In this document: positions 30,457 to 51,068 of the stretch, one piece after another
Numbering within the stretch: position 1 is the stretch's first letter
How the letters are laid out: every line of letters begins with the position of its first letter
NCBI GenBank assembly: GCA_038204165.1
Contig: JBBRDG010000003.1
Location: 929-64,928, forward strand
Source of the DNA: Elusimicrobiales bacterium
Lineage (GTDB): Bacteria; Elusimicrobiota; Elusimicrobia; Elusimicrobiales; UBA9959
DNA: 64,000 nt
Reading direction: 5' to 3'
Translations under genes and position numbers: made by a program
The notes under the pieces: model-generated
Seen by the model: the letters and a program-made list of their open reading frames with translations, nothing else
What the model was told of the DNA's origin: nothing
Database searches by the model: none

Positions 30457-30459
30457 AGT

Positions 30460-33018: not shown

Positions 33019-33064
33019 GTTGCGTCTCCGTGGCTCATGGAATGCTGATAATAGATTCTATAAT

Positions 33065-34000: not shown

Positions 34001-34105
34001 AGTACCCGCGTATTATTTTACAACAATTAGACAGGGTTCAAATCCGTCTCAAAATTTTAGATAATATTAGTACAAACTCTGAATTCAGCAGCGAAGGCCC
34101 GAGGA

Positions 34106-35488
34106 ATGACAATGGCTAACAAATCTATGCTTATCCGCAACGCCCTGGTCCTGGCCACCATGGACGGTCAGGGACGTGAAATAAAGGGCGGCGATGTCTA
34201 CATCGAAGGCCCGGAGATAAAAAAAGTCGGAAAAAACCTCAGGGTGAAGGCCGATACCGTCATTGACGCCAAGGGCTGCGTAGTGCTGCCCGGCTTTGTG
34301 AACACCCACCACCACCTATACCAGACCCTGACGCGCAACCTGCCCAAGGCGCAGGATTCCAAGCTTTTCGACTGGCTGATCTACCTTTACGACATCTGGA
34401 AACACATCAACCCCGAGGCTGTGTACGCCAGCACGCAGGTGGGCCTGGGCGAGCTGCTACTGACCGGCTGCACCACCAGCACCGATCACCTGTACCTGTT
34501 CCCCAAGCAGAACAGCGGCCTCTTCATCGACACCCAGATTGAGGCGGCCAGGGAACTCGGCATGCGCTTTCACCCGACGCGCGGTTCAATGTCGCGCGGG
34601 CGCTCCAAGGGCGGCCTGCCGCCTGACAGCGTAGTGCAGAGTGAAGATTTTATTATGAAGGATTGCGAGCGCCTGGTGCATAAGTACCACGACGCTAAAG
34701 ATTTTGCCATGACCCGGGTGGCGCTGGCGCCGTGCTCGCCATTTTCCGTAACCACCGAGCTTCTGAAGCTTACCGCGGTGATGGCCAAGAAATGGGGCGT
34801 GCGGATGCATACCCACCTGGCCGAAACTATCGACGAAGAGGACTTCTGCAAAAAGCTCTTCAAGATGCGGCCGCTGGACTACATGGAATCCGTAGGCTGG
34901 GTGAGCGAAGGCAATGCCTGGTTCGCTCATTGCGTTTATATTAACGAGGCCGAAGCTAAAAGGATGGGGAAAACCCATACCGGCGTGGCGCATTGCCCCT
35001 GCTCCAACCTGCGCCTCGGTTCCGGCATAGCTCCCATACGGATGTTCATGGAGCACAATGTGCCTGTGGGCATTGCCGTGGACGGCTCCGCCTCCAACGA
35101 TTCTTCCGACATGCTGGGCGAAATACGCCAGGCCATGCTGGTGCAGCGCGTTAAGGCGGGCGTGGAAGCCATGCCGGCGCGCGACGCTTTTAAGCTCGCT
35201 ACCCTGGGCGGCGCTTCCGTGCTGGGCCGCACGGATATCGGCTCTATCGAACCGGGTAAAGCCGCCGACCTCGCCATCTTCGACGTGAGCGGGCTGGATT
35301 TTGCGGGCTCCAAGTCGGACCCGCTGGCCTCGCTGCTGTTCTGCGGCGCCTCGCACCGGACCAAGTACACCGTAGTGAACGGCAAGGTGGTGGTGAAGAA
35401 CGGCCGCCTGGTCAACGTGGACGAATTCAAACTGGCCGAGCGCGCCAACAAAGCCGCCGCCTCGCTTTACAGAAAGGGCGGCTGCTGA
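34106..35488 (+). CDS. Amidohydrolase of the 8-oxoguanine deaminase / ATZ-TRZ family
   Basis: 460 aa. The N-terminus LIRNALVLATMD...GDVYIEG...VLPGFVNTHHHLYQTL is typical of this deaminase subgroup. Confidence 0.8.
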   Translation: MTMANKSMLIRNALVLATMDGQGREIKGGDVYIEGPEIKKVGKNLRVKADTVIDAKGCVVLPGFVNTHHHLYQTLTRNLPKAQDSKLFDWLIYLYDIWKHINPEAVYASTQVGLGELLLTGCTTSTDHLYLFPKQNSGLFIDTQIEAARELGMRFHPTRGSMSRGRSKGGLPPDSVVQSEDFIMKDCERLVHKYHDAKDFAMTRVALAPCSPFSVTTELLKLTAVMAKKWGVRMHTHLAETIDEEDFCKKLFKMRPLDYMESVGWVSEGNAWFAHCVYINEAEAKRMGKTHTGVAHCPCSNLRLGSGIAPIRMFMEHNVPVGIAVDGSASNDSSDMLGEIRQAMLVQRVKAGVEAMPARDAFKLATLGGASVLGRTDIGSIEPGKAADLAIFDVSGLDFAGSKSDPLASLLFCGASHRTKYTVVNGKVVVKNGRLVNVDEFKLAERANKAAASLYRKGGC

Positions 35489-36594: not shown

Positions 36595-37197
36595 ATGCTT
36601 TCAGCAATCATACTTGCGGCGGGTGAATCTAACAGGATGGGGAAGCCCAAGGCGCTGCTCCCGTGGCGGGGCCGCCCTTTCCTGGAACATGTCTGCGATT
36701 CGCTCCGCCGGGCCGGGGTAGAGGACCGGGTGGTAGTGCTTGGCCAGTCCTCGCACGAGATCCTGGGCGGCTGGGTGCCGGCCGGGGAGAAAGTGGCAGT
36801 AAATCCGCAACCGGAGCACGGCCAGCTTTCTTCGCTGCGCACCGGGCTTGCCGACATTTCCGAATTTTCCGAAGGCTTCATGGTCTGCCTGGCCGACCAG
36901 CCTACTATCGATCCCGACACCTACAGTAAGCTCATAGCCTGCTGGCTTTCCAACAGGGAGTCCATCGTAATTCCGCGCGTTTTCAGAGCTTCAGATTCCC
37001 GCCTGAAGCGCGGGCATCCCATCATCATCCCGGCCGCTTATAAAGCGCTCTGCTTTGAAGGGCCGCTGGACAAGGGCCTGCACTGGGTAACCCACCATCC
37101 CTCCGTTAAGGTCACCGACCTGGAAGTTAAAGACTCCGGCATCATCCGCGACTTCGACACGCCGGAAGAGTACGAGGCGCTCGTTAAGGCCGGCTGA
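36595..37197 (+). CDS. mocA: Molybdenum cofactor cytidylyltransferase (MobA-like NTP transferase)
   Basis: 200 aa. The N-terminus LSAIILAAGESNRMGKPKALLPW is typical of MocA/YgfJ. Confidence 0.8.
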   Translation: MLSAIILAAGESNRMGKPKALLPWRGRPFLEHVCDSLRRAGVEDRVVVLGQSSHEILGGWVPAGEKVAVNPQPEHGQLSSLRTGLADISEFSEGFMVCLADQPTIDPDTYSKLIACWLSNRESIVIPRVFRASDSRLKRGHPIIIPAAYKALCFEGPLDKGLHWVTHHPSVKVTDLEVKDSGIIRDFDTPEEYEALVKAG

Positions 37198-38432
37198 TGT
37201 TGACGCTGCTTATCCTCCTGGCCGTTTTTCTGCTGATCGCCGTGCGGGAAGTGGGGCGCTTCCGTTTTGAGATCTGGCAGGTGATGTCCGCCGGCGCCGC
37301 CGCCGCGCTGCTGACCGGCGGAATAAAGCCGGCCGCGGCCCTCAGGGCTATCGACCCCGACGTGATGCTCTTCTTGTTCGGCATGTTCGCGGCGGGCCAG
37401 GTGCTGGAACTCAGCGGTTGGCTGGCGCACGCCAAATACGAAATTTTCAAGCGCGTTAACACCGAGAGGTCGCTCCTGCTGCTGTTGGTGTTCTTCATGG
37501 GTATCGCTTCGGCTTTCCTGATGAATGATACGCTGGCTATCATCGGCACGCCGGTAGTGCTGCTAATCGCCCGGAAACACGACATCTCTCCCAAGGCGCT
37601 GCTGCTGGCGCTCGCTTTCTCCATAACCGTGGGCAGCGTTATGAGCCCGATAGGCAACCCGCAGAACCTGCTGGTGGCCGTTAACGGGGCGATACAGTCG
37701 CCTTTCCTGACCTTCCTGAAATATTTGGCAGTGCCAACGCTACTGAACCTCGCCGCGGTCTTTGTGCTGGTGCGCCGCTTTTACCCGGAGGAATTTACCA
37801 GCTGCCCGCTTAAGAATTCCCGGGAGCCGGTTAAAGACAAAGAGCTGGCCCGGCTGGCGAAAGTGACGGTGTTTATCCTGGCGGTGATGATCGCCGCTAA
37901 AATAAGCCTGGTGTGGCTGGACCCGGCGCTGGATTTCGGGCTTATCTGGATAGCGCTGGCCGCGGCGGCGCCCGGCCTGCTGTTCAGCCCGCGCCGCGTC
38001 GAGATCCTTAAGAAAATAGATTGGAGCACGCTGGCTTTCTTCGCCGCCATGTTCGTGCTGACGCGGGCGGCCTGGGATACCGGCTTTTTCCAGGGACTGA
38101 TAGCCGGTTCGGGGGCGGACATAACCGGTTTGGGCGCGGTAATGGTGGTAAGCGTGGCGCTTAGCCAGCTAATCTCCAACGTGCCGCTGGTGGCGCTCTA
38201 CCTGCCCGTGCTGAAGCAAGCGGGCGCGGGGACCCCGGCCTTTATGGCGTTGGCCGCGGCTTCTACTTTCGCCGGCAACCTTTTCATCCTGGGCGCGGCC
38301 AGCAACGTGATAATAATCCAGGCCGCGGAAAAAAAGGCCGGAGTCACCATTACGTTCCGCGAGTTCGCCCGCATAGGAATACCGCTTACTTTTATAAATG
38401 CCATAATATACTGGATTTACCTGAAAATATAA
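37197..38432 (+). CDS. ArsB/NhaD-superfamily (SLC13-like) anion permease
   Basis: 411 aa, ~10-12 TM helices with repeated MSPIGNPQNL-type re-entrant motifs. The start overlaps the mocA stop (TGATG). Confidence 0.7.
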   Translation: MLTLLILLAVFLLIAVREVGRFRFEIWQVMSAGAAAALLTGGIKPAAALRAIDPDVMLFLFGMFAAGQVLELSGWLAHAKYEIFKRVNTERSLLLLLVFFMGIASAFLMNDTLAIIGTPVVLLIARKHDISPKALLLALAFSITVGSVMSPIGNPQNLLVAVNGAIQSPFLTFLKYLAVPTLLNLAAVFVLVRRFYPEEFTSCPLKNSREPVKDKELARLAKVTVFILAVMIAAKISLVWLDPALDFGLIWIALAAAAPGLLFSPRRVEILKKIDWSTLAFFAAMFVLTRAAWDTGFFQGLIAGSGADITGLGAVMVVSVALSQLISNVPLVALYLPVLKQAGAGTPAFMALAAASTFAGNLFILGAASNVIIIQAAEKKAGVTITFREFARIGIPLTFINAIIYWIYLKI

Positions 38433-38440
38433 GAGGGGAC

Positions 38441-39967
38441 ATGCTGAAAACCAGCACTAAAAACGAAAGGCGGACCAAGCTTAAAGGGCTTACTTCTATA
38501 GCCGTAATTCCGATCTATCTGCAGTTCGTGGATGGCGCCTTTTTTAATATGTACACGGCAGTTTTCGGCGACCCGGCTGGTACGGCGGCGGCCCGCCACG
38601 GGTTCAGCGTCATGCTGACCTCAGGGCGTTTCCTGTCCGCAGGCCTGATGACGCTGCTGATGTACCTGTGGGTTAGGCCGGCCATCCTGTATCCGGCCGA
38701 TCCCCGGCCTCGCTACCTGGAAACAATGCGCCGGCGCATAGGGAACCTCTACCGTGACGCCGGCATCATGCTGGGGGCCGCGCTGACGGCGCGCCTGCTC
38801 TTGCTCTTTTTCAGCGGAACTGCGGGGGGAGCGCTTACGCAGGTTCTGCCCGCCTTGCTGGTCTCCTACGTGGCGCAGGCCTGCGCGCTGCTGATCTACG
38901 TGGATTTTAACTTCTCGATGAACCAGGATTTTATGGAGCTGCTGTTCACGAGGGAAGAACTCTACTCGCCGCGCAGAGGCGGCTATGTGCCCCTGTATGT
39001 TAAAGTCGGGGGCCTGGTGTTCTCTTTTGCGCTGCTGCCGTTCGTGTTCGTTTACGCGGCCCTGCATAAAAGCATAGCCGCGGATTCGCTCGTGGAGCCC
39101 GCCAGCTCGCTGCTCTTCCTGTCCGCTATCACTCTCTTTGTCGGGCTTAGGTTCGTGTTCCACGGCATCCAGAAACCGCTGAACGGGCTTATAGACAAGA
39201 TGCGCCGGGTTTCCGAAGGCGATTTCGATGTTAAGACGCGGGTGTATTTCTCTGACGAAGTGGCCAGGTTGAAAGCCGGTTTCAATGAAATGGTGGACGG
39301 GCTCAAGGAGCGCGCCGAACTGCAGGATACCTTCGGCAAGTATATGTCCATAGAGATCGCGCGCGAACTCATCAAGAACAAGAAGGTTAACCTTGGCGGC
39401 GAGGACATGGAAGCGGCGGTGATGTTCTGCGACATCCGCAACTTCACTTCGCTAAGCGAGAAGATGAGTGCCTCCATGCTGGTTGAATTTCTTAACGGTT
39501 ATTTCCACTATATTACCCCGCCCATCGCCGCGCATCACGGCGTGATAAGCAAGTTTATGGGCGACGCGGTGATGGCAATTTATACGCCGCTGATGGGGTC
39601 CGGCGACTACGCCGCCGATGCGGTGCGCGCGGCCGTGGACATGCGCAAGGCCCTGTCGGAATATAACGATTCTGGCAAGCTGCACGGGCGGGTGGAGTTC
39701 GGCATAGGCGTACACTGTGGCAAGCTCGTGGCCGGGAATATCGGTACCGCGGCCCGGCTCGAATACACTTTTATCGGCGACACGGTCAATATCGCCTCGC
39801 GCCTGGAGTCAAAGACCAAGGATTTTAACACCGACATCATCGTCAGCGAGGCCGCCGTAGTAAAAGCGAGCGGGTCGCTGGGCGGCTCCGTGGCCTTTGA
39901 GCCCCTGGGCAAAGCCGCCCTGAAGGGGAAGAGCGAAATGATGGAACTTTACAAGGTGGCAAATTAA
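38441..39967 (+). CDS. Membrane-bound HAMP-domain class III adenylate/guanylate cyclase
   Basis: 508 aa. Polytopic N-terminus, a HAMP linker, and the catalytic motifs VMFCDIRNFTSLSE, GDAVMAIYTP, FIGDTVNIASRLES. Confidence 0.85.
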   Translation: MLKTSTKNERRTKLKGLTSIAVIPIYLQFVDGAFFNMYTAVFGDPAGTAAARHGFSVMLTSGRFLSAGLMTLLMYLWVRPAILYPADPRPRYLETMRRRIGNLYRDAGIMLGAALTARLLLLFFSGTAGGALTQVLPALLVSYVAQACALLIYVDFNFSMNQDFMELLFTREELYSPRRGGYVPLYVKVGGLVFSFALLPFVFVYAALHKSIAADSLVEPASSLLFLSAITLFVGLRFVFHGIQKPLNGLIDKMRRVSEGDFDVKTRVYFSDEVARLKAGFNEMVDGLKERAELQDTFGKYMSIEIARELIKNKKVNLGGEDMEAAVMFCDIRNFTSLSEKMSASMLVEFLNGYFHYITPPIAAHHGVISKFMGDAVMAIYTPLMGSGDYAADAVRAAVDMRKALSEYNDSGKLHGRVEFGIGVHCGKLVAGNIGTAARLEYTFIGDTVNIASRLESKTKDFNTDIIVSEAAVVKASGSLGGSVAFEPLGKAALKGKSEMMELYKVAN

Positions 39968-39983
39968 GTAAAATTATAATGTT

Positions 39984-40811
39984 ATGAAAGAACAAAAAAA
40001 CCTGATAAAAATGCTTTCCGAGGCCATAGACTCGGGCCGCGGGGCGGCCTTCGTCACCGTGATTTCCGTGGGTGGTTCGACTCCGCGCGAAGCCGGCGCC
40101 AGAATGCTGGTCTACGCCGACGGCTCCATAGAGGGCACGGTGGGCGGCGGCACTATCGAGATGCTGACCATAAAGAAGGCGGTCGAGTGCATAGCTAAAG
40201 GCGAGGGCGGAAAATTTAATTTCGAACTTAAGCCCGGCGGCAATACCGGCATGATCTGCATGGGCAGCATGGAAGTGTATATCGACGTATATACCAACCC
40301 GCTCAAGGTGCTGATCCTGGGCGGCGGCCACGTGGGTTTGAAGATCGCCGAGGCCTGCCGGCTGGCCGGCTATCCCTATTGCGTGGCGGACGACCGTAAG
40401 GAGTTCGCCAACGCCGAGCGGTTTCCCGGAGCTATAGCCGTTATAAACCAGGAACCGCATAAGGCGGTAGCCGCGGCGGGTGTGGATAAGGACACTTACG
40501 TGGTGATAGTCACTCGCGGGCACTCGCTGGACCGGGAATGCCTGGAAGCCGTAATGCGCACCCCTGCCGCCTACATCGGCATGATAGGCAGCGCCGATAA
40601 GGTGCGCGAGATCTTCCGCCTGCTCGGCAAGAAGAAGCTTTATCCGCACAAGGACCAGCGCGTGCATTCGCCCGTCGGGCTCAACCTGGGCGGCAAGTCG
40701 CCGGGCGAGATAGCCGTTTCCGTGCTGGCCGAGATCATACAGCTGCACTACAAGCGCGACGCCAGGCATATGCGCGTAACCGACGCCGGTCCCGCTAAAG
40801 CCGGTAAGTAA
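39984..40811 (+). CDS. xdhC: XdhC/CoxI-family molybdenum-hydroxylase maturation factor
   Basis: 275 aa. N-terminal XdhC_CoxI region (FVTVISVGGSTPREAGARMLV) plus a Rossmann-like half (VLILGGGHVG). Confidence 0.85.
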   Translation: MKEQKNLIKMLSEAIDSGRGAAFVTVISVGGSTPREAGARMLVYADGSIEGTVGGGTIEMLTIKKAVECIAKGEGGKFNFELKPGGNTGMICMGSMEVYIDVYTNPLKVLILGGGHVGLKIAEACRLAGYPYCVADDRKEFANAERFPGAIAVINQEPHKAVAAAGVDKDTYVVIVTRGHSLDRECLEAVMRTPAAYIGMIGSADKVREIFRLLGKKKLYPHKDQRVHSPVGLNLGGKSPGEIAVSVLAEIIQLHYKRDARHMRVTDAGPAKAGK

Positions 40812-40865
40812 GCGGTTAACTTTAAAATAGAAGGCGGTTTTTCTTGCAATGACCGGGTCCGCGCT

Positions 40866-41639
40866 ATGACAGATATTCAGGACCGCTACCGGCGGCAGGC
40901 CGCGCTGCGCGTGGTCGGGCCGGAGGGCCAGCGCAAGCTAGCCGCCAGCACCGTGCTGGTGGTCGGCTGCGGCGGCCTGGGTAGCGCGCAGGCACAATTC
41001 CTGGCCCGGGCCGGCGTAGGCCGGCTCATCCTGGCCGACAGGGATATAATCCAGCTTTACAACTTGCCTTACCAGTTCATCTACGACGAGAAAGACGTGA
41101 CGGAGCGCATGCCCAAGGCCGAGGCCGCCGCGCGCCGCCTGCGGGCGGTGAATTCCGGCATTACCATTGAACCGGTCGTGGTTAACGTCACCGCCGCTAA
41201 TGTGGAGGAGCTGCTGGCGCGGGCCGACCTGCTGATGGACGCCACGGACAATTTTGAGACCCGCTACCTTCTGAACGACGCGGCTGTTAAGGCTGGTAAA
41301 CCCTGGGTTTACGGCGGGGTGCTGGGCACCGACGGCACGGTGATGGCCGTGCGCCCGGGCGGGCCCTGCCTGCGCTGCCTCTTCCCGGAGCAGCCCGCCG
41401 AAGGTCTGCTGCCCAATTGCGACGCGTACGGGGTGTTGAACACCGCCGTGGCCTGGGCGGCCGCGCTGCAGGTTACCGAGGCGCTCAAATTTCTTACGGG
41501 CGCGCCCGACAAAGATTTTAAGTTCCATACGCTGGACATCTGGCAGGGTTCGGTCTCGGCGGTCTCGGCAGAGCGCCGCGCGGACTGCGTCTGCTGCGGC
41601 CAGCGCCGCTTCGAGTTTCTCAAAAAGGATCAAGTATGA
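40866..41639 (+). CDS. ThiF/MoeB/HesA-family E1-like adenylyltransferase
   Basis: 257 aa. RYRRQ, VVGCGGLGS nucleotide loop, DATDN, two CxxC pairs (CLRC, CVCC), and a conserved active-site-region Cys (NCDAYGV). No rhodanese domain. NLPYQ replaces the canonical NLQRQ. Confidence 0.85.
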   Translation: MTDIQDRYRRQAALRVVGPEGQRKLAASTVLVVGCGGLGSAQAQFLARAGVGRLILADRDIIQLYNLPYQFIYDEKDVTERMPKAEAAARRLRAVNSGITIEPVVVNVTAANVEELLARADLLMDATDNFETRYLLNDAAVKAGKPWVYGGVLGTDGTVMAVRPGGPCLRCLFPEQPAEGLLPNCDAYGVLNTAVAWAAALQVTEALKFLTGAPDKDFKFHTLDIWQGSVSAVSAERRADCVCCGQRRFEFLKKDQV

Positions 41640-43030
41640 CGAGTTTTATTCTTAATCAACGCGTGGTACATACTGACGAGCGCCCAGGCATGGTCCTGCT
41701 GGAATATATCCGTGGCGTGGCCTGTCTGTCCGGCACCAAGGAAGCCTGCCGTGAGGGCGAATGCGGCGCCTGCACCGTGCTGGTTGGAACGCGACAAGCG
41801 GACGGCACCGTGGCTTACAAGGCCTGCGCCTCCTGCCTGCTACCCATCGGCGACGTGGATGGCTGCCATATTGTTACCGTGGAGGGCCTTATCGGCGAGC
41901 CCCTTACGCTGGTGCAGCGGCTTATCGTCGAGAACAACGCCTCGCAGTGCGGGTTCTGCACCCCCGGCATAGTGCTGTCGCTTACCGGGTTCTGCCTTGG
42001 CAGTTCCACGCTTTCTTACGAACACGCTGTTGATGCGCTGGATGGCAATATCTGCCGCTGCACGGGTTATGTTTCCATCCGTAACGCGGCGCGCACGCTG
42101 TGCGAAAAATTAGCTTCAGTGGGTTCCGACCCGGCCGAACGGCTGGGCGCGCTTGTGTCCGCCGGAGTGGTGCCCGAGTACTTCCGCGCTATCCCGGACC
42201 AGTTGGCGCAGCTCCACGCCGACCCGCGGCCTGCCTGCGAGGGCGCGGTGCTGGTGGCCGGTGGCACGGACCTGTTCGCGCAGCGCCCCGAGCAATTGCT
42301 GGAAAGCGACCTTTGCTTCTTATCCGATCGCTGCGATCTAAATTATATCCGTGTAGATGGCGAGTTCCTGCGTGTTGGCGGGGGGGTAACTATCGAAGAT
42401 TTCCGCCGGTCTGCCCCGGTGCTTAAGCATTTTACTGAAGTAGCGCAGGACCTCCTGCGGCATTCCTCCACGATTTTGCGCAACAAGGCCACGCTCACCG
42501 GCAATATCGTAAACGCTTCTCCCATCGGCGACGCCAGCATCATTCTGCTGGCGCTCGGTGCGCGGCTCATTATCGAGGGTCGTGGCGGAGCCAAACGGGA
42601 AGTGCCGCTCTCGAAGTTCTTCCTAGGCTATAAGAAAACTGATCTTGCATGCGGTGAGCTTGTGGCCGAGATTATAATTCCGCTGCTGCCGGCCGGCGCC
42701 AGCTACCATTTTGAGAAGGTCTCCAACCGGGCCACGCTCGATATTGCGGCGGTAAACACCGCGCTGCGTCTGGCCATCGGGCCAGACGGGGCCATCACCG
42801 GCCTGAGTCTTGCCGCCGGAGGCGTGGGGCCGACCCCGCTCCTGATAGGCGGCCTTGAGGTTTTTTACGGCCGCAAGCCGGACGCTGGCACTGTAGATGC
42901 TATAGCCAAGACTGCCGAGGCCGCGGCTAAACCTATAGACGATATCCGCGGCTCCGCCGCTTACAAGAAATTACTGTTGGGCCAATTGGTGCGCGCTCAT
43001 TTTACCGCCACCGCCGGGGAGGCCGTATGA
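41636..43030 (+). CDS. xdhA: Xanthine dehydrogenase small subunit (2x[2Fe-2S] + FAD domain)
   Basis: 464 aa. Motifs CREGECGACTV, CGFCTPG, CRCTGY and the FAD domain LVAGGTDL. 4-nt overlaps on both sides. Confidence 0.88.
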   Translation: MTSFILNQRVVHTDERPGMVLLEYIRGVACLSGTKEACREGECGACTVLVGTRQADGTVAYKACASCLLPIGDVDGCHIVTVEGLIGEPLTLVQRLIVENNASQCGFCTPGIVLSLTGFCLGSSTLSYEHAVDALDGNICRCTGYVSIRNAARTLCEKLASVGSDPAERLGALVSAGVVPEYFRAIPDQLAQLHADPRPACEGAVLVAGGTDLFAQRPEQLLESDLCFLSDRCDLNYIRVDGEFLRVGGGVTIEDFRRSAPVLKHFTEVAQDLLRHSSTILRNKATLTGNIVNASPIGDASIILLALGARLIIEGRGGAKREVPLSKFFLGYKKTDLACGELVAEIIIPLLPAGASYHFEKVSNRATLDIAAVNTALRLAIGPDGAITGLSLAAGGVGPTPLLIGGLEVFYGRKPDAGTVDAIAKTAEAAAKPIDDIRGSAAYKKLLLGQLVRAHFTATAGEAV

Positions 43031-45270
43031 AGAACGAAGACATGAACATGCACGTGCGCGGCACTTCGCGCTTTGTGGACGATATCCCGGTTGCCGAGAA
43101 CTGCCTGCACGCCGTTCTTTATGCGTCGCCTGTGGCCCGCGGTAAAATAATTTTACTGGACGTCTCCAGGGCCGCCGCCGCCGAGGGCGTGGCCGCGGTC
43201 TATACGCACCGCGACGTGCCCGGCCTTAACCAGGTTGGGCATGTGCTTAAAGATCAGCCTTTGCTGGCCATCGATAGTGTGGAGTACATAGGTCAGCCCA
43301 TAGCTTTGGTGGTGGCCGATACGGAGCGCAACGCCCAGCGCGCCGTTAAACTTATCAGCGCCGACATTGAGAAGCTCCCGGCGGTCTTCGACCCGCGCGA
43401 AGCGGCAGCCAAAGGGCTGGTCCACGGGGCCAAACGCGTCCTCGTGAACGGCCAGCCGGAAGCGGCTTTCGCTAAATGTAAGTATATCGCCGAGGGGCGG
43501 CTTTCGAGCGGTCCGCAGGAACACTTCTATTTTGAAACCCAGCGCGCGCTGGCGGTGCCCGGTGAGCATGACACCATCAAGGTGCATGCCAGCGCCCAGT
43601 CGCCCGGCGCTTACCACCGGCACCTCGCCGAAGTGCTGGGCATCCCCATGCACAAGGTGGAACTGGATATCCGCAGGCTCGGCGGCGGGTTCGGCGGCAA
43701 GGAATCTACGGCGGTCTGGATAGTAGCGCCGGCCATGGCCGCTTTCCTTCTAAAACGCCCGGTTAAACTTGTATTGAGTCGCAACGAAGATATAGCCACT
43801 AGCGGCAAACGCCACGCCTACGAGTATGACTATAAATTGGGCCTGGACGCCGAGGGCAACATACTTGCCTACCAGATAGACCTGTTCCAGCATGCCGGCG
43901 CTTGCGCCGATATTTCGCTGGCCGTGCTCGGCCGCTCGTTTCTGCATGTTTCGGGTTCTTATAATATCCCCAATATTCGCGTAACCGCACTAAGCTGCCG
44001 CACCAACATTCCGCCGAACAATGCCTTCCGCGGTTTCGGCGTGCCTCAGGGCACTTTCTCAATCGAAGCGGCGCTGCACCATGCCGCCGAACTGATGGGC
44101 GTGGACGCGGAAACCCTTAAACGCAGGAACCTGCTGCGCGACGGGGACACATTACCGTACGGCGTTAAGCTGGACGGCGTGAACGCCGTGCGCTGCTGGG
44201 AAACGCTGGATAAGAATATTAATATCGCCGGGCGCCGCGCGGCGGTTGAGGAATACAACCGGACGCATACGGACACCCGGCGCGGGCTTTCGGTGGTGCC
44301 GGTCTGCTTCGGCATCTCTTTCGCGCAGATGGCGCTTAACCAGGCGAGCGCGCTGGTGAATATTTACGTCGACGGCAGCGTTGCGGTAAGCACCGGCGCG
44401 GTGGAGATGGGTCAGGGGGTCAACGCCAAGATCCGTATTGTCGCCGCGCGCACGCTGGGCATTCCCGTAGAGAAGGTGCGGGTGGACACCACCAACACTT
44501 CCCGCATCCCTAACGCTTCTCCTACTTCGGCCAGTACCGGGGCCGATCTTAACGGCATGGCCACCAAGCTGGCTTGCGAAAAGCTCCGCGACCGCCTGCG
44601 CGAGTTCGCCGCCCGGCACCTGGCCTGCGGCGACCCCGCCTCCGTCGCTATCCGCGACGGAGACGTCTGCGTGGCCGAAAAGCGCTCGGACCTTGGCTGG
44701 GAAAAGCTGGTGGCGGCCGCGCAGTGGGCGCGCGTGGATCTGTCCGAACACGCTTTCTACGCCACGCCTAACCTTAGCTACGATCTAAAGACCGAACGCG
44801 GACAGCCTTTCGCCTACTACAGTTACGGCACCTCGCTTACCGAAGTGCTGCTGGACTGCGTGCGCGGCACCTATGTTGTAGAGTCGGTAGATGTTGTGCA
44901 AGATGTAGGCGAGTCGCTTTCCCCGGAGATAGACCTGGGCCAGATACATGGCGCGGTGATCCAGGGCATCGGCTGGGCCACGCTGGAGCAAATCCGCTAC
45001 GGCGCCGAAGGCAAAGTACTCACCGGCGTTAACGCCTACAAAGTGCCGGACATCAAATTCTGCCCGAAGCGCTTCGAGGTCACCCTTCTGAAAGACTCCG
45101 TGAACCCTTACGCCGTGTGCAACAGCAAGGCCATCGGCGAGCCCCCGTTCGTGCACGGGCTCGGTTCATACTTCGCCATCTTGCAGGCGCTCCGCAGCGT
45201 GCGCCAAGACAAGCCCGCCCCGTCGCTCCCCATCACCCCCGAAAAAGCCTTCATGTACCTGCACGAATAG
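43027..45270 (+). CDS. xdhB: Xanthine dehydrogenase molybdopterin-binding subunit
   Basis: 747 aa with LGGGFGGKE, FRGFGVPQG and the catalytic-Glu loop SKAIGEPPF. Confidence 0.88.
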   Translation: MKNEDMNMHVRGTSRFVDDIPVAENCLHAVLYASPVARGKIILLDVSRAAAAEGVAAVYTHRDVPGLNQVGHVLKDQPLLAIDSVEYIGQPIALVVADTERNAQRAVKLISADIEKLPAVFDPREAAAKGLVHGAKRVLVNGQPEAAFAKCKYIAEGRLSSGPQEHFYFETQRALAVPGEHDTIKVHASAQSPGAYHRHLAEVLGIPMHKVELDIRRLGGGFGGKESTAVWIVAPAMAAFLLKRPVKLVLSRNEDIATSGKRHAYEYDYKLGLDAEGNILAYQIDLFQHAGACADISLAVLGRSFLHVSGSYNIPNIRVTALSCRTNIPPNNAFRGFGVPQGTFSIEAALHHAAELMGVDAETLKRRNLLRDGDTLPYGVKLDGVNAVRCWETLDKNINIAGRRAAVEEYNRTHTDTRRGLSVVPVCFGISFAQMALNQASALVNIYVDGSVAVSTGAVEMGQGVNAKIRIVAARTLGIPVEKVRVDTTNTSRIPNASPTSASTGADLNGMATKLACEKLRDRLREFAARHLACGDPASVAIRDGDVCVAEKRSDLGWEKLVAAAQWARVDLSEHAFYATPNLSYDLKTERGQPFAYYSYGTSLTEVLLDCVRGTYVVESVDVVQDVGESLSPEIDLGQIHGAVIQGIGWATLEQIRYGAEGKVLTGVNAYKVPDIKFCPKRFEVTLLKDSVNPYAVCNSKAIGEPPFVHGLGSYFAILQALRSVRQDKPAPSLPITPEKAFMYLHE

Positions 45271-45300
45271 GGGAAGGGGAATCTGATTGGAGGAAAGGGG

Positions 45301-45351
45301 AAATAGGGGACAGCGCCCTATATTTCCGAAATAGGGCGCTGTCCCCTATTT
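45301..45351 (+). terminator. Strong hairpin terminator after xdhB
   Basis: Perfect 21-bp stem AAATAGGGGACAGCGCCCTAT / ATAGGGCGCTGTCCCCTATTT with a 9-nt loop, followed by TTTT. Confidence 0.7.
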
Positions 45352-45386
45352 TTCCCCGGAGTTTAGTCCAGTAGCAACTTCAATCC

Positions 45387-45416
45387 TTGACAGGCTTGAG
45401 CGGCCGCTGATACAAT
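45387..45416 (+). promoter_or_regulatory. Sigma70 promoter abutting the moaD start codon
   Basis: TTGACA (45387-45392), an 18-nt spacer, TACAAT (45411-45416). Only 7 nt lie between the -10 and the ATG at 45424, with no SD. Confidence 0.6.
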
Positions 45417-45423
45417 TCTTAAG

Positions 45424-45669
45424 ATGAAAAAGAAAATTATGGTCCGCTATTTTGCGCTTATCGGCGAGCGGCGCGGCACGCAGACCGAGGCCTATGAGAC
45501 CTGCGCCGAGACGGCGCGGGAGCTGCTGCACGAGCTGCAGGCCGGCAAAGTTATTCCCCTTACCACCAACATCTCCAAGGCCTCCATAAACGACAAGTTC
45601 GTGGACTGGGACGCCCCCATCCAAGACGGCGACCTGGTCACCCTGCTCTCCCCGTTCTCCGGCGGTTGA
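45424..45669 (+). CDS. moaD: MoaD/ThiS-family ubiquitin-like sulfur carrier
   Basis: 81 aa ending in ...LLSPFSGG (C-terminal Gly-Gly). MVRYFALIGERRG aligns with MoaD N-termini, so an alternative start is the ATG at 45439. Confidence 0.85.
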   Translation: MKKKIMVRYFALIGERRGTQTEAYETCAETARELLHELQAGKVIPLTTNISKASINDKFVDWDAPIQDGDLVTLLSPFSGG

Positions 45670-45684
45670 GACAATCCGGATAAA

Positions 45685-45726
45685 AGAAAACCGCCGCCGC
45701 ATAGGGATATGCGGCGGCGGTTTTCT
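45685..45726. terminator. Bidirectional rho-independent terminator
   Basis: 19-bp stem AGAAAACCGCCGCCGCATA / TATGCGGCGGCGGTTTTCT with a 4-nt loop, between convergent moaD and the minus-strand Mo subunit. Confidence 0.8.
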
Positions 45727-45741
45727 GTTGTTCCAGGTCTG

Positions 45742-48078
45742 TTACTTCTTGCCTACGGCCTGGATGGCCTTCAACACTCTTTCGGGGGTGAAGGGGAACT
45801 CGCGCACGCGGGCGCCGGTGGCATTGTATAGGGCGTTAGCCAGAACTGGGGCCGCGCCGTTGATGGAGATCTCCGACACGCTCTTGGCGCCGAAGGGGCC
45901 GGTGTCCTCATAGGAGGGCACCAGGATGGACTTCACCGGCGGGCGGTCGCGCATGGAGTAGATGTGGTAGTCGGCGAAGGACGCGTTCATCATCTTCCCG
46001 TTCTCGAACAGGTACTCCTCGGTCAGCGCGTAGCTGATGCCGTTCAGGGTGCCGCCGTCGGTTTGCCCCTCGCAGAGCTGCGGGTTGATGGCGGTGCCGC
46101 AGTCTATGGTGGAGATATAGTTCAGTACCTTGATGAAGCCGGTCAGCGTGTCCACTTCTATCTCGGCGAAGTGGGCGGCGAACGGCGGGGGGGACTTCTT
46201 GGTGATATGCGAGGCCGTGCCGATAATCTGGTACTGGTTCTTCTGGTACAGCGTGTACTTTGCTATGTCGCCGTAAGAGACCTGCTTGCTGCCGTCGGCA
46301 TTGCGCACGGAGGAATCCTCGCAATGCACTTCGGAGACGGAGAGCCCGAGCATTTCCGCGCCGGAGGCCAGAATCTGCCGCTTGGCGTCGGCCGCGGCCT
46401 TGCGGGCGGCTTCGCCCGACAGGTAGGTGGTGGACGAAGCGTAGGCGCCCACGTCGAACGGCGTCATGTCCGTATCGGAAGAGTACACGATCATCTTGTC
46501 GGTAGTGGTCTCCAACTCTTCGGCGGCTATCTGCGCCAGTACGGTGTCCGAGCCGGTGCCCAGGTCGGTGGCCCCGACGTTAAGGTTGAAAGAGCCGTCG
46601 TCGTTTATCTTTATCATCGCGCCGCCCATGTCGATGTCCGGAATGGACGAGCCCTGCATCAGGCAGGCCATGCCGAAGCCGCGGCGGAAACGGCCGGTCT
46701 TGCCGCGCCAGTCGGCGCGGTTCTTCCAGCCCACGGCTTCCGCGCCCTGCACTATACATTCGGCTAGCGCGTTGGACCCTACGGTCATCGGGGTGCCTTC
46801 GCGGCCTTCGCCGAGCGCCGCGAAGATGGGCGAGCCCTCGCCCGACTTAATATGGTTCATCTGGCGGAAAGCCATGGGGTTCATGCCTATGGCCTCGGCC
46901 ATTTCGTCCATGACGGATTCCATAGCAAAGAAGGCCTGCGTGGCGCCGAAGCCGCGGTAGGCGCCGCCCACGGGCAGGTTGGTGTAATAGGACTTGCCGT
47001 CAAAGTGAATGTTGTCACAATGGTAGAGCGGCAACACTTTGGAGCCCGCGCAGGACACCACGGTGAGGCCGTGGCCGCCGTAGGCCCCGGTGTTATTGGC
47101 GCAGTCCATGCCAATAGCGGTAATGGTGCCGTCCTTCTTAACGCCGGCGCGGATGCGCACGCGGAAAGGGTGGCGGGTGCGGCCGGTGCGGAACATCTCT
47201 TCTCTGTTAAACTGCCAGAAGCAGGGGCGGCCGGTGCGCAGGGCGAACATGGCCACCACGTCTTCCAGCAGAATCTCCTGCTTGCAGCCGAAGCCGCCGC
47301 CGATTCTGGGTTTTATAACACGAATCTGCTGTACCGGGATGCCCAGGGTCAGCGCCACGATGCGGCGGCAATGAAAGGGAACCTGAGTTGAAGTGGTGAT
47401 GACGATGCGCCCCGAAGGAGCTCTCTGGGCCAGTGATGTGTAAGGCTCGATGGGGCAATGCTGGGCGTAGGGAGTCTCGAAGGATTCGTCGAAGGTGAAG
47501 TCCGCGGCCTTCATGCCCTTCTCAAAGTCGCCGGCTTCGCAGCCCACCTGGGCCACCAGGTTCTTTTTGGGCTCGTAGGGAATAGGGATGGGGACGTGGG
47601 CTTCTTTCTCGTCGTGGATGATGGGGGCGTTCGGGGCCATGGCCTCGTCCAGCGAGAAGACCGGCTGGAGCACTTCGTACTCCACCTTTATCGCTGCGAG
47701 CGCGGCCAGGGCCTGTTCCTCGGTCTCGGCGGCTACGGCGGCCACGCGGTCGCCCACAAAGCGCACCTTGCTGTCGAACATGAAAGTGTCGTAGGGAGAG
47801 GGCTCGGGAAAGCCCTGGCCGGCGGTGCAGTGCACTATGCGCGGCACATTGCCATGCCACAACACGCCTTTCACCCCGGGCATCTTCTCGGCGGCCGAGA
47901 TGTCCAGTGACTTAATGCGGGCGTGAGCGTGCGGGCTCCAGAGCATCTTTACTATAAGAGTGTTGCGCGGTACGAAGTCGGCCACGTACGAGTCCTTGCC
48001 GAGAGCGAGCTGGAGGGCGTCGATCTTGGTGACGGAATGATTTACCTGCTTAAATTTGCTGGTGCGTTCGTCTTTCAT
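45742..48078 (-). CDS. Xanthine-dehydrogenase-family molybdopterin subunit (XdhD / purine-hydroxylase-like)
   Basis: 778 aa with IGGGFGCKQE, YRGFGATQ and the C-terminal loop FGAKSVSEISINGAAP. Confidence 0.85.
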   Translation of the reverse strand: MKDERTSKFKQVNHSVTKIDALQLALGKDSYVADFVPRNTLIVKMLWSPHAHARIKSLDISAAEKMPGVKGVLWHGNVPRIVHCTAGQGFPEPSPYDTFMFDSKVRFVGDRVAAVAAETEEQALAALAAIKVEYEVLQPVFSLDEAMAPNAPIIHDEKEAHVPIPIPYEPKKNLVAQVGCEAGDFEKGMKAADFTFDESFETPYAQHCPIEPYTSLAQRAPSGRIVITTSTQVPFHCRRIVALTLGIPVQQIRVIKPRIGGGFGCKQEILLEDVVAMFALRTGRPCFWQFNREEMFRTGRTRHPFRVRIRAGVKKDGTITAIGMDCANNTGAYGGHGLTVVSCAGSKVLPLYHCDNIHFDGKSYYTNLPVGGAYRGFGATQAFFAMESVMDEMAEAIGMNPMAFRQMNHIKSGEGSPIFAALGEGREGTPMTVGSNALAECIVQGAEAVGWKNRADWRGKTGRFRRGFGMACLMQGSSIPDIDMGGAMIKINDDGSFNLNVGATDLGTGSDTVLAQIAAEELETTTDKMIVYSSDTDMTPFDVGAYASSTTYLSGEAARKAAADAKRQILASGAEMLGLSVSEVHCEDSSVRNADGSKQVSYGDIAKYTLYQKNQYQIIGTASHITKKSPPPFAAHFAEIEVDTLTGFIKVLNYISTIDCGTAINPQLCEGQTDGGTLNGISYALTEEYLFENGKMMNASFADYHIYSMRDRPPVKSILVPSYEDTGPFGAKSVSEISINGAAPVLANALYNATGARVREFPFTPERVLKAIQAVGKK

Positions 48079-48090
48079 GTATTACCTCGG

Positions 48091-48603
48091 TTAATGCTTG
48101 TGATCGTGGGGTTCGGGTACGGGTTTGCCGGCTTCGCGGCGGTCCAGCACCTTGCGCAGCGCTATCCAGATCTTCTCGTAGCCGGTGCAGCGGCACAGGT
48201 TTCCGTCCATATATTCTCGGACAATCTCGTCCTCGAACACGGTCTCGGTCTCCATCAGCGCGGTAGCGCTCATTACCATGCCGGGGATGCAGTAGCCGCA
48301 CTGCACGGCGCCGGCCGCTATAAGTTCCTTCTGGAATTCGGCGGGCTCTTCGAAGGTGCCGGCGCTTTCGATGGTGCGCACACTGCGGCCTTCGGCCTGC
48401 TTGGCGTAAAGAAGGCAGGAGTAGACGGCCCGGCCGTCCATGATCATGGTGCAGGCGCCGCAGGTACCCTGGCCGCAGCCGAACTTGGTGCCGCGGTAGC
48501 CTTCGCGGCGCAGCAGCGCTAGCAGCTTCTCGTCTGGCTCGGTGACAAAGGTCTTAACCTCGCCGTTAAGGGTAAAGGTGACGGTGTTGGGATTCTCTTT
48601 CAT
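48091..48603 (-). CDS. (2Fe-2S)-binding small subunit of Mo hydroxylase
   Basis: 170 aa with CGQGTCGACTMIMDG, CGYCIPG and CRCTGYEKI. Confidence 0.9.
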   Translation of the reverse strand: MKENPNTVTFTLNGEVKTFVTEPDEKLLALLRREGYRGTKFGCGQGTCGACTMIMDGRAVYSCLLYAKQAEGRSVRTIESAGTFEEPAEFQKELIAAGAVQCGYCIPGMVMSATALMETETVFEDEIVREYMDGNLCRCTGYEKIWIALRKVLDRREAGKPVPEPHDHKH

Positions 48604-49454
48604 TATTCGGCCCTCTCTTTGGCGAACGCCGCGGCTTTTTCCAGCGCGTCTACCAGCGAAACTTCAGCCAGCTGTTTAATGTAGTCCGCGCTCATCCCTT
48701 CGCGCACGCACCAGCGGGCGTCGGCGGAGGCCACGTTGGCGGCTTCCTTGAAGACCTCGGTTGTGGCCTCGCGGCCGACCAGCGCGGCCTCTACGGAGGG
48801 CAGGCGGTGGGGAAAGGGGATGGCGCTGCCGGCGGAGACGCGCGCGGACTTTATTTTGCCGTTCTGCAACTCAAGCAGGGCGGCGATTGTAACCAGCGAG
48901 AAAGCTGCGGCGTTGCGCGTGGCTTTTACCGCACCGAAGCCCTGGTGCGCTTTCAGCACGGGCACTTTAACGGCGGTAAGTAGGTTGCCGCCCTGGAAGC
49001 GTTTGGCGGGCTGGGCCGCGAAGTAATCGTCGGCGGCTACTTCCTCTTCTTTCTCGGAGCCGGTGTAGATCAGCATGCGCGCGTTCAGGGCCAGCAGCAC
49101 CACGGGCAGGTCGGCCCAGGGGAAGATGCGGCAGATATTGCCGCCTATGGTGGAAACGTTGCGGATCTGGTGGGTGGAAATGTTGCGGGCTATCTCGTGC
49201 ATCACCCAGCCGTGGCCGCGGTGGCGCTGCAGGTCGGAAAGCGGGGTGGTGGCGCCTATGGCGAAGAAATCGCCTTCCTGGCGGATGAAGGAAAGGCCCA
49301 GGCGGGTAATGTCAACCGCGGTGACGGGGGTCTTGGTCGGCATGAAATGCAGCGCCGTGCCGCCGGCGAGGGGCATACCTTTGGGACCCAGTTCGCGCAG
49401 CGTATCGCGCGCCTCTGACAGGCTGGCGGGACGGATAAATTCACATAGCTTCAT
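48603..49454 (-). CDS. FAD-binding medium subunit of Mo hydroxylase (CoxM/YgfM-like)
   Basis: 283 aa with PLAGGTALHF and the TIGGNI motif. The stop overlaps the start of the 2Fe-2S subunit. Confidence 0.85.
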   Translation of the reverse strand: MKLCEFIRPASLSEARDTLRELGPKGMPLAGGTALHFMPTKTPVTAVDITRLGLSFIRQEGDFFAIGATTPLSDLQRHRGHGWVMHEIARNISTHQIRNVSTIGGNICRIFPWADLPVVLLALNARMLIYTGSEKEEEVAADDYFAAQPAKRFQGGNLLTAVKVPVLKAHQGFGAVKATRNAAAFSLVTIAALLELQNGKIKSARVSAGSAIPFPHRLPSVEAALVGREATTEVFKEAANVASADARWCVREGMSADYIKQLAEVSLVDALEKAAAFAKERAE

Positions 49455-49772: not shown

Positions 49773-51068
49773 ATGAAAAATATAACAAAAACCTTGGCCA
49801 CAATGCTGTTGTTCATGGCTTTTACGTCAGCCGCGCATGCTGTAGACGGCTACCAGCAGCTGGCGAACGAGATCAGCGAGGCCGGCGCCTCGATCCAGGG
49901 GAAGAAAATAGCGATTATCCCTTTCTCCTACGCCGACGGGCGCACCGGGGCCACCAAGGATGGCGCGGTAATCTCCGAACGTCTTACCATCAAGATGATC
50001 AACATGCACAAGTTCGAAATCATCGAACGCTCCGTGCTGGACAAGGTGATGGCAGAACTCAAGCTCCAGGCTTCCGGCATGATAGACGCTTCCAGCGCGC
50101 AGCAACTGGGCAAGGTGCTCGGTGTTGAAGCCATAGTGACCGGCACACTGGTCGAGACTTCCGGCGGCCAGATAGAGGTTAACGCCCGCCTGATCAAGAC
50201 CGAGACCGCGCAGGCCATAGGCGCCTCGCAGGTCGCGCTGGATAAAAACTGGATAGGCGACGCCGCCACCGCCCAGCAGCAGCCCGCGTACCAGCAGGCG
50301 GCCTACCAGCAGCCCGCTTACGAGGCGCCGGTAAAGCAGCATCCTCCCTACGCGCGCGGCAAGAATGAATACGGTTTTTTCGATATTTTCATGGGGTTTG
50401 GTTCCCCCAAAATGGATATGGAGTTCAGCAATTCTAACGGCAATATCACTCTGGACAGCACCTATGGCAACGACCTTGGCATAGCGGTCAGCGGCCTGAT
50501 TATTCCCAAGGATTATAAGACCGTTACCTGGAAGGGGCTTAAGACCGAGGGCGTAGGCCCGATAGCTTTCCGAGTTGGCGGTTTCGGCAAGCAGGCGCTG
50601 GGCGGCGACCTGGAAATATCATATGAGAAGCGCAACATAGCGGTGCAGGATACCACTTGGTCTCTCAACGGCGGTGCCGCGAATAAATTCAAGTTCGACA
50701 CCAACGATTACGCCACGGTTAAGACCTTCGGCATCAGCGGCGATCTGCTTATCAGGCACGCCGGAAATAAAGTGGACCCGTACTTCGGCATCGGGCTCGG
50801 AATGTCGCTCAACGCTATTGAACTTCCCTATGTCAAAGGGTTTACAGACGGCTCTTTTGTGCGGCCTACGAATGATCTTGGGCTGGGGCTGATGTTCAGG
50901 ATCCCCGTCGGTTTGCGCATACGGATTGGTGACAAGACTCAACTGGTCGCGGAAGCGCGTTATGAGATTAATTCTATACATTTTAACCGCGGCAGCATCA
51001 GCGGCGAGTCGGATAATATAACCCTTAGCGGGGTTAAATTCAACGTGGGCATGGGCTTCCTGTTCTAA
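49773..51068 (+). CDS. Outer-membrane protein: FlgO/CsgG-like N-terminal domain + Q/P/A/Y linker + beta-barrel
   Basis: Signal peptide ending AHA. The N-domain (KKIAIIPFSY...IERSVLDKVMAELKLQASG...VEAIVTGTL) resembles FlgO/LpoB/CsgG-type lipoprotein folds. Tandem PAYQQ-like repeats follow, then a C-terminal barrel ending GMGFLF. Confidence 0.55.
   Translation: MKNITKTLATMLLFMAFTSAAHAVDGYQQLANEISEAGASIQGKKIAIIPFSYADGRTGATKDGAVISERLTIKMINMHKFEIIERSVLDKVMAELKLQASGMIDASSAQQLGKVLGVEAIVTGTLVETSGGQIEVNARLIKTETAQAIGASQVALDKNWIGDAATAQQQPAYQQAAYQQPAYEAPVKQHPPYARGKNEYGFFDIFMGFGSPKMDMEFSNSNGNITLDSTYGNDLGIAVSGLIIPKDYKTVTWKGLKTEGVGPIAFRVGGFGKQALGGDLEISYEKRNIAVQDTTWSLNGGAANKFKFDTNDYATVKTFGISGDLLIRHAGNKVDPYFGIGLGMSLNAIELPYVKGFTDGSFVRPTNDLGLGLMFRIPVGLRIRIGDKTQLVAEARYEINSIHFNRGSISGESDNITLSGVKFNVGMGFLF

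Follow-up and report, generated by a model that had tools for sequence, protein, structure and literature searches.

Within a 64,000-nucleotide stretch of an Elusimicrobiales bacterium genome (GenBank assembly GCA_038204165.1, contig JBBRDG010000003.1, positions 929 to 64,928 of the forward strand; hereafter the window), genes for an E1 adenylyltransferase of the MoeB/ThiF type and for an 81-aa MoaD-like sulfur-carrier protein are built into a xanthine dehydrogenase (XDH) gene block. Open reading frames (ORFs) and domain matches bear out the five-gene layout that an earlier note had drawn from the letters alone, namely xdhC, the E1 gene, xdhA, xdhB and a carrier ending in Gly-Gly (Table 1), together with the 4 nt (ATGA) that the stop of the E1 gene shares with the start of xdhA. 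XdhC carries both the N-terminal XdhC_CoxI and the C-terminal XdhC Rossmann domain, and scores under cutoff against NCBIfam models NF045664 (XdhC_rel_AOR, 246 bits) and TIGR02964 (125 bits). XdhA and XdhB share the domain order and the catalytic-residue equivalents of the Rhodobacter capsulatus enzyme, with the XdhB motifs FYFETQ, FRGFG and KAIGEPP corresponding by alignment to bovine Glu802, Arg880 and Glu1261; XdhB aligns with bovine xanthine oxidase (XO) at 526 bits and with R. capsulatus XdhB at 512 bits. The top NCBIfam matches of the two subunits, TIGR02963 for XdhA (306 bits, cutoff 467) and TIGR02965 for XdhB (725 bits, cutoff 849), are likewise under cutoff. Additional to the earlier note are two further elements of the same region: a MocA-like cytidylyltransferase gene for the molybdenum cofactor (Moco), which heads a conserved block mocA-CitMHS permease-adenylate cyclase-xdhC and whose product best matches TIGR03310 (MocA/YgfJ; 146 bits, under the cutoff of 186), and a second XO-family enzyme, encoded convergently with moaD and probably another client of the same cofactor supply.

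Table 1. Features of the Moco/XDH region and its flanks, in positions of the 64-kb window.
Feature	Position	Strand	Evidence or remark
Two amidohydrolases and an 852-aa protein	29131-35488		852-aa protein resembles a dihydropyrimidine dehydrogenase / glutamate synthase fusion
MocA-like Moco cytidylyltransferase (MobA-like NTP transferase)	36595-37197	+	PF12804, E 8e-32
CitMHS-family permease	37197-38432	+	Pfam match, conserved synteny
HAMP adenylate cyclase	38441-39967	+	Pfam match, conserved synteny
XdhC-family Moco insertion/sulfuration chaperone	39984-40811	+	PF02625 (XdhC_CoxI, E 9e-20), PF13478 (XdhC_C Rossmann, E 6e-37)
MoeB/ThiF-type E1 adenylyltransferase, short form, 257 aa	40866-41639	+	PF00899, E 2.5e-72
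XdhA, XDH small subunit	41636-43030	+	Pfam Fer2, Fer2_2 (two 2Fe-2S), FAD_binding_5, CO_deh_flav_C
XdhB, molybdopterin-binding subunit, true XDH type	43027-45270	+	Hammerhead and MoCoBD_1/2 domains
Terminator-like hairpin and T-run between xdhB and moaD	45297-45357	+	dG -48.4 kcal/mol, z -8.6
Predicted sigma-70-type promoter of moaD	45387-45416	+	TTGACA-18-TACAAT, 11/12 matches, extended -10 TG
MoaD-like sulfur-carrier protein, 81 aa	45424-45669	+	PF02597 (ThiS family), E 6.5e-10; C-terminus FSGG
Bidirectional terminator hairpin, common to moaD and the convergent operon	45678-45733	.	dG -42 kcal/mol, z -8.3
Second XO-family molybdoenzyme, convergent with moaD	45742-49454	-	Pfam and NCBIfam matches
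 Mo subunit	45742-48078	-	
 2Fe-2S subunit	48091-48603	-	
 FAD subunit	48603-49454	-	
CsgG/FlgO-like lipoprotein	49773-51068		After the second XO-family operon

The earlier note placed the carrier gene behind its own promoter, and this proves correct, since a hairpin with a T-run and then a near-consensus promoter lie between xdhB and moaD (Table 1). The hairpin has a 19-bp stem whose arms (45306-45321 and 45331-45346) are unique within the window. In most relatives this insert of hairpin and promoter is missing and xdhB and moaD overlap by 4 nt, and longer xdhB-moaD gaps occur in two other loci; as predicted from these signals, the insert would make of a translationally coupled moaD a separate transcription unit in the window.

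The carrier itself is a beta-grasp protein of the ThiS/MoaD type with a Gly-Gly end, PF02597 covering its residues 7-81. Its top matches in the PDB are all MoaD proteins, first that of Pyrococcus furiosus (1vjk, E 5e-5) and then that of Escherichia coli (1fm0), to which it is about 31% identical. A word-based search gathered a family of 113 proteins of at least 59% identity, and the alignment of 114 sequences has 15 invariant columns, which hold also in the two most divergent members (59-60% identical). As one of these two, P0233, follows pckG, the gene for phosphoenolpyruvate (PEP) carboxykinase, the invariant columns give no sign that XDH-linked and pckG-linked carriers differ in function.

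The arrangement recurs well beyond the window. Six Elusimicrobia loci came out of a scan of species-representative genomes, and the order E1-xdhA-xdhB-moaD was found in six of the six related Elusimicrobia genomes, with moaD overlapping the xdhB stop in every one. Locus L019 reads mocA-permease-cyclase-xdhC-E1-xdhA-xdhB-moaD, identical in order to the window, and L020 reads cysteine desulfurase-E1-xdhA-xdhB-moaD; the mocA-led order of the window is shared by L001-L003, L006, L019, L027 and L041. Scanning metagenomes with the MoaD family contributed 77 further loci. The loci with a member of the carrier clade, 73 with the window counted, collapse into 53 lineages when dereplicated at a moaD nucleotide identity of 97%. 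The carrier gene follows xdhB in 31 of the 53, nearly always with a 4-nt overlap, and comes directly after the E1 gene without xdhAB in 3; in 4 it stands alone, close to the second, convergent XO-family operon, and in 7 it follows pckG with no XO-family enzyme within 10 kb, the contig being too short for its position to be read in the remaining 8. Most loci with enough sequence to tell have the E1 gene immediately before xdhA. The pair also persists beside the second XO-family operon where xdhAB is missing (L049, L053, L055 and L060), and in most relatives that operon converges on moaD; L014, L040, L049, L053, L055 and L099, which have no xdhAB, are among them. Three xdh operons (L039, L042 and L043) have XdhC and moaD and no E1. 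The recurrence of E1, carrier and XDH together across uncultured Elusimicrobia is more than chance, so the integration of the pair into the xdh unit, as seen in the window, is a conserved link. The carrier family is nonetheless not XDH-specific, given its 7 lineages behind pckG and its 4 in which it stands alone.

Two observations on the carrier loci may be recorded here. In the pckG-linked loci (L012:8205-10240, L047, L057, L059, L065, L066, L068-L070, L072-L074 and L076) moaD often overlaps the stop of the GTP-dependent PEP carboxykinase gene, and neither an XO-family enzyme nor an E1 lies within 10 kb. An additional ThiS/MoaD match in L051 was considered as a second carrier and rejected, being a duplicated moaD fragment (RGVQTDDYETEAATAR, L051:3486-3701) about 1 kb downstream of the intact gene.

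The E1 has a full-length ThiF domain, matching PF00899 with 243 bits (cutoff 28) over residues 8-241, which correspond to profile positions 1-236 of 238. Its scores are below the curated cutoffs of the narrower families, with 228 bits for TIGR02356 thiF (275), 136 for TIGR02355 moeB (377) and 237 for PRK12475 (510), and in the PDB it scores best against ThiF (130 bits) and MoeB (117 bits). In the PDB alignment the motif NLPYQ falls on NLQRQ of E. coli ThiF, so that Tyr69 takes the place of ThiF Arg70 or MoeB Arg73, in agreement with the earlier note. This residue, which corresponds to Arg515 of human UBA1, holds the gamma-phosphate and pyrophosphate of ATP (PMC12355090, PMC13139853). Its absence marks a real lineage: the arginine of the NLxRQ motif is missing from the window E1 and from 75 of 75 members of its clade. 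Among the best 120 E1 homologs listed, 60 have the arginine (NLQRQ, NLHRQ or NLPRQ) and 60 do not, and the best of these listed matches are from uncultured Elusimicrobia. When the Arg-less sequences of this set were joined with the E1s of the fetched loci (unique sequences, n=75) and placed in a neighbour-joining tree, all 75 were monophyletic and nested within the Arg-bearing family. The phylogeny proposed in the earlier note thus gives the XDH-linked E1s a clade of their own, defined by the loss of the ATP-contacting arginine. Where gene context is readable, 32 of 32 Arg-less loci (not dereplicated) adjoin xdhA or moaD, with L019, L022 and L038 XDH-linked by gene map, and no Arg-bearing E1 is XDH-linked (L016, L017, L018 and L021).

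The rest of the active site is intact. The window E1 has the equivalents of Asp62, Lys86, Asp130 and both CxxC zinc pairs, all of them invariant across the clade. It also has the arginine finger Arg14, which 73 of the 75 clade members keep, two having a gap there; these assignments were made against an E. coli MoeB sequence, and the PDB alignment with ThiF agrees with them. Mean pairwise identity is 0.69 within the Arg-less clade and 0.68 within the Arg-bearing sister group, which, with the invariant catalytic and zinc residues, argues that the clade is under normal purifying selection. At the Arg73 position itself the clade is variable (Thr in 49, Ser in 19, Tyr in 4, Ala in 2, Gly in 1), as would fit a disused site. 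We therefore weighed whether the E1 adenylates poorly on its own and acts instead as the non-catalytic partner of a canonical E1, in the manner of yeast Tcd1 with Tcd2 or of the inactive adenylation domains in eukaryotic E1s, or whether it binds MoaD as a scaffold and passes it on to the maturation of XDH. The precedent is close, in that Tcd1, a non-catalytic paralog, has Thr in place of the arginine and retains Lys, Asp and the arginine finger (PMC13139853), just as the arginine finger is kept here, and the E1-less xdh operons imply that the E1 is dispensable in some of them. The Tcd proteins, however, act on tRNA t6A rather than on a ubiquitin-like carrier, and none of the clade loci showed a partner or second E1. 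Nor is there general decay: the other catalytic and zinc-binding residues are invariant, and the only change tightly coupled to the loss lies four residues downstream (MoeB position 77), where all 75 Arg-less sequences have Tyr and 90% of the Arg-bearing ones have Phe. One helical turn away, this Tyr may reach the same ATP-phosphate pocket, and its invariance alongside the intact other residues suggests compensation rather than decay. The Arg-to-Ala substitution at the equivalent position of yeast Tcd2 removes about 91% of activity and leaves about 9% (PMC13139853), and a low-flux process such as Moco synthesis could tolerate a loss of that order; a literature search returned no paper on MoeB R73A. 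An impaired or regulatory E1 is on balance unlikely.

The sister group indicates where this E1 may have come from. The nearest Arg-bearing E1s are 63-70% identical to it and belong with the housekeeping MoeB/ThiF proteins of the Bacillus type, PRK12475 being its best NCBIfam match. Unlike the XDH-linked, Arg-less and truncated E1 of the window, they retain NLQRQ and lie among general sulfur-relay genes: Rrf2-NifS-E1 in L016, NifS-MnmA-E1 in L018, and Rrf2-CysK-ThiI-XdhC-NifS-MnmA-E1-ThiG-ThiH-ThiS in L017, the L021 gene being unlinked. Long forms of the XDH-linked E1, of about 340-350 aa, share with the Bacillus-type proteins an extra C-terminal domain of about 85 aa (residues ~255-340 of P0008; also in L004-L006, L019 and L020), which has no significant Pfam match and was lost in the E1 lineage of the window. 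In L020 (8856-10007) and L024 (2529-3680) the first gene of the xdh operon is that of a class-V cysteine desulfurase, overlapping the start of the E1 gene; its product is 67% identical to the L016 desulfurase that precedes an Arg-bearing E1. The best 120 matches of the L020 desulfurase include no named Elusimicrobia, and about 20 of them are on contigs equal in length to those of Arg-bearing E1s of other phyla, which is suggestive only. The E1 may thus derive from a general-purpose module of cysteine desulfurase and E1, of which L020 and L024 would have kept the desulfurase; most lineages would then have dropped the operon desulfurase and some the C-terminal domain of the E1, and the E1, once tied to a narrower job, would have lost its Arg73 equivalent, the lineage of the window parting with the C-terminal domain as well.

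Since the sister E1s work in pathways of the ThiS and MnmA types, and the carrier also follows pckG, the pair could in principle belong to a pathway that merely neighbours xdh, be it thiamin synthesis, tRNA thiolation, CysO/HcyS-type synthesis of cysteine and methionine, or protein tagging of the ubiquitin-like kind. None of the corresponding partners (ThiG/H, MnmA/TtuA, CysM, a JAB protease or an E2) was found near members of the clade, the carrier resembles MoaD and not ThiS or CysO, and its gene is translationally coupled to xdhB in over 30 lineages, which points to a functional link. This is the most improbable of the explanations weighed here.

We instead consider it probable, judging from sequence, that the E1 and the 81-aa protein are a MoeB-type adenylyltransferase and a MoaD of molybdopterin (MPT) synthesis, placed with their main clients, the two XO-family enzymes. 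This is argued by a carrier that matches MoaD and ends in Gly-Gly, by an E1 that is a full ThiF/MoeB domain, and by the presence of MocA and XdhC in one block with the pair and its clients. Family membership and gene context make MPT synthesis the most likely role of the pair, and we infer its steps as follows. The E1 would adenylate the C-terminal Gly of MoaD, a cysteine-desulfurase persulfide would turn the adenylate into a thiocarboxylate, and MoaD-COSH with a MoaE encoded elsewhere would make the MPT dithiolene; once Mo is inserted, MocA would cytidylylate the cofactor, and XdhC would assist in its sulfuration and in its insertion into both adjacent XO-family enzymes. Co-transcription with xdhAB would couple cofactor supply to apoenzyme synthesis, and in relatives moaD would be coupled to xdhB in translation as well.

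There is precedent for such a placement. Iyer, Burroughs and Aravind (2006; PMC1779556) described MoaD, often with MoeB, strictly adjacent to tungsten aldehyde:ferredoxin oxidoreductase (AOR) genes, sometimes besides a main Moco operon, and read these clusters as client-specific MPT supply. The loci described here are alike in having the carrier strictly beside a pterin-dependent oxidoreductase, often with MoeB and conserved across lineages. They differ in their client, an XO-family molybdoenzyme with XdhC and MocA rather than the tungsten AOR; that paper contains no occurrence of xanthine dehydrogenase and no Arg-less E1. A further precedent is Methylorubrum extorquens, in which moaD, moaE and moeB are dispersed (PMC13197769, Table 1). 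The same two protein families make up the MoeB-MoaD system of E. coli, where MPT synthase is MoaD2-MoaE2, and the E1 shares with MoeB the GxGxxG Rossmann motif, the arginine finger, Lys86, Asp130 and two CxxC pairs. It differs in that no lineage scanned has an adjacent moaE and in that the genes lie inside the operon of a client enzyme.

Several observations weigh against a role in MPT supply. The residue that the E1 lacks is the one that stabilises the gamma-phosphate and pyrophosphate (PMC12355090), and the carrier scores under the curated moaD cutoffs (32 bits for TIGR01682, cutoff 66; 33 bits for TIGR01687, cutoff 49.5). Genes for moaE, moaA, moaC, moeA and mogA were not found within about 10 kb of the moaD/E1 clade in about 70 loci, and the pairing of moaD with moaE that forms the bacterial core (PMC1779556) is missing, no MoaE being detected by hidden Markov model (HMM) in the window or in the roughly 70 clade loci. 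Distant MoaDs (31-36% identity) from the same scan, meanwhile, do sit in moaA-moaC-moaD-moaE(-moeA) clusters (L087-L095). Within the window itself, Pfam scans of all large ORFs, together with searches by HMM, phmmer and tblastn that took in every ORF from 50 aa upward, found no moaA, moaC, moaE, moeA, mogA or cysteine desulfurase anywhere in the 64 kb, as the earlier note had stated for moaE, moaA, moaC and the desulfurase; the E. coli queries (MoaA, MoaC, MoaD, MoaE, MoeA, MogA and MoeB) gave clear positive controls in L087-L098. A separate observation from the control contigs is that three ORFs of about 600 aa in unrelated metagenomes (L087:6896-9034, L090:9723-11837 and L091:3624-5756), each after moaA-moaC-moaD, match both MoaE and E1 and look like MoaE-MoeB fusions.

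The earlier note had also raised a bolder possibility, in which the thiocarboxylate of the carrier, charged by the Arg-less E1, donates the terminal, cyanolysable Mo=S sulfur to XdhC-bound Moco, replacing or supplementing the persulfide of NifS4 or IscS. It rightly called such a route undescribed, since a 2026 review of the sulfido ligand cites XdhC and NifS4 alone and does not mention MoaD. The tight and repeated linkage of the pair to XO-family enzymes, XdhC and MocA, and never to core Moco genes in the loci scanned, would suit this route, as would the separate clade of XDH-linked E1s with its altered active site and the gathering of cysteine desulfurase, E1, xdhAB and moaD in one operon in L020 and L024. 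Client linkage is, however, just as expected if the pair supplies MPT, and nothing positive supports thiocarboxylate donation. Carriers of the same clade behind pckG with no XO-family enzyme nearby, or standing alone, and xdh operons with XdhC and moaD and no E1 argue against an XDH-specific chemistry, and a CsgG-like gene separates xdhC from the E1 gene in many relatives. The XdhC-NifS route, moreover, requires no carrier protein: in R. capsulatus, whose system resembles the present one in its XdhC and, for L020 and L024, in a desulfurase at the head of the operon, the persulfide acts directly on XdhC-bound Moco with neither E1 nor carrier, and the window itself, in difference to it, holds no desulfurase. 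Such a donor is accordingly disfavoured and we give it little credence. The broader proposal, that the E1 and carrier form a second relay separate from a canonical MoeB/MoaD/MoaE set, in some lineages with an operon desulfurase, and deliver the sulfido ligand or otherwise act in XdhC-dependent maturation, seems to us just as doubtful. The conservative assignment to MPT supply is the more likely of the two possibilities that the earlier note put forward.

Its selenium variant, a selenocarboxylate donor, fares no better, as selD, yqeB and yqeC were not among the Pfam matches of the window, and a selenium-dependent hydroxylase was rejected on this ground; selenium-hydroxylase models score under cutoff (TIGR03313, 688 bits against 1102 for the second enzyme; TIGR03311, 317 against 830 for XdhB). 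The literature searched describes no E1 or MoaD in xdh operons, and is silent on Moco genes in these organisms, as are a paper on groundwater Elusimicrobia and its supplements.

Some neighbouring genes deserve mention. An XdhC-family protein is encoded inside the general sulfur-relay operon of L017 (6813-7760; a PVC-group metagenome-assembled genome, GCA_043804695.1), with no molybdoenzyme within 10 kb; its identity is 36% to the XdhC of the window and 35-40% to those of the window's relatives, which hints at a partnership of XdhC and desulfurase outside XDH maturation. CsgG/FlgO-like lipoprotein genes are found between xdhC and the E1 gene in many relatives (for example L001:8643-9953) and as three tandem paralogs in L026 (10922-14602), as well as at the far side of the second XO-family operon in the window. 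The amidohydrolases and the 852-aa protein upstream of the Moco/XDH block (Table 1) suggest that they form with it a larger purine and pyrimidine catabolic island, and amidohydrolase homologs flank the second XO-family operon in L014 too. The remaining genes of the window are for histidine utilisation, amidohydrolases, the dihydropyrimidine dehydrogenase-like protein and unrelated functions.

The bacterial Mo=S step is at present explained by XdhC and a cysteine desulfurase only, and if a second, canonical set of MoeB, MoaD and MoaE exists in these genomes, the operon would be a strong candidate for a dedicated route of Mo=S maturation. If the pair supplies MPT, as we favour, the theme of client-linked MoaD and MoeB would extend from tungsten AORs to XO-family enzymes, and a natural, well-conserved lineage of E1 enzymes would work without the near-universal ATP-phosphate arginine, with the invariant Tyr four residues downstream offering a testable idea for how adenylation is kept.

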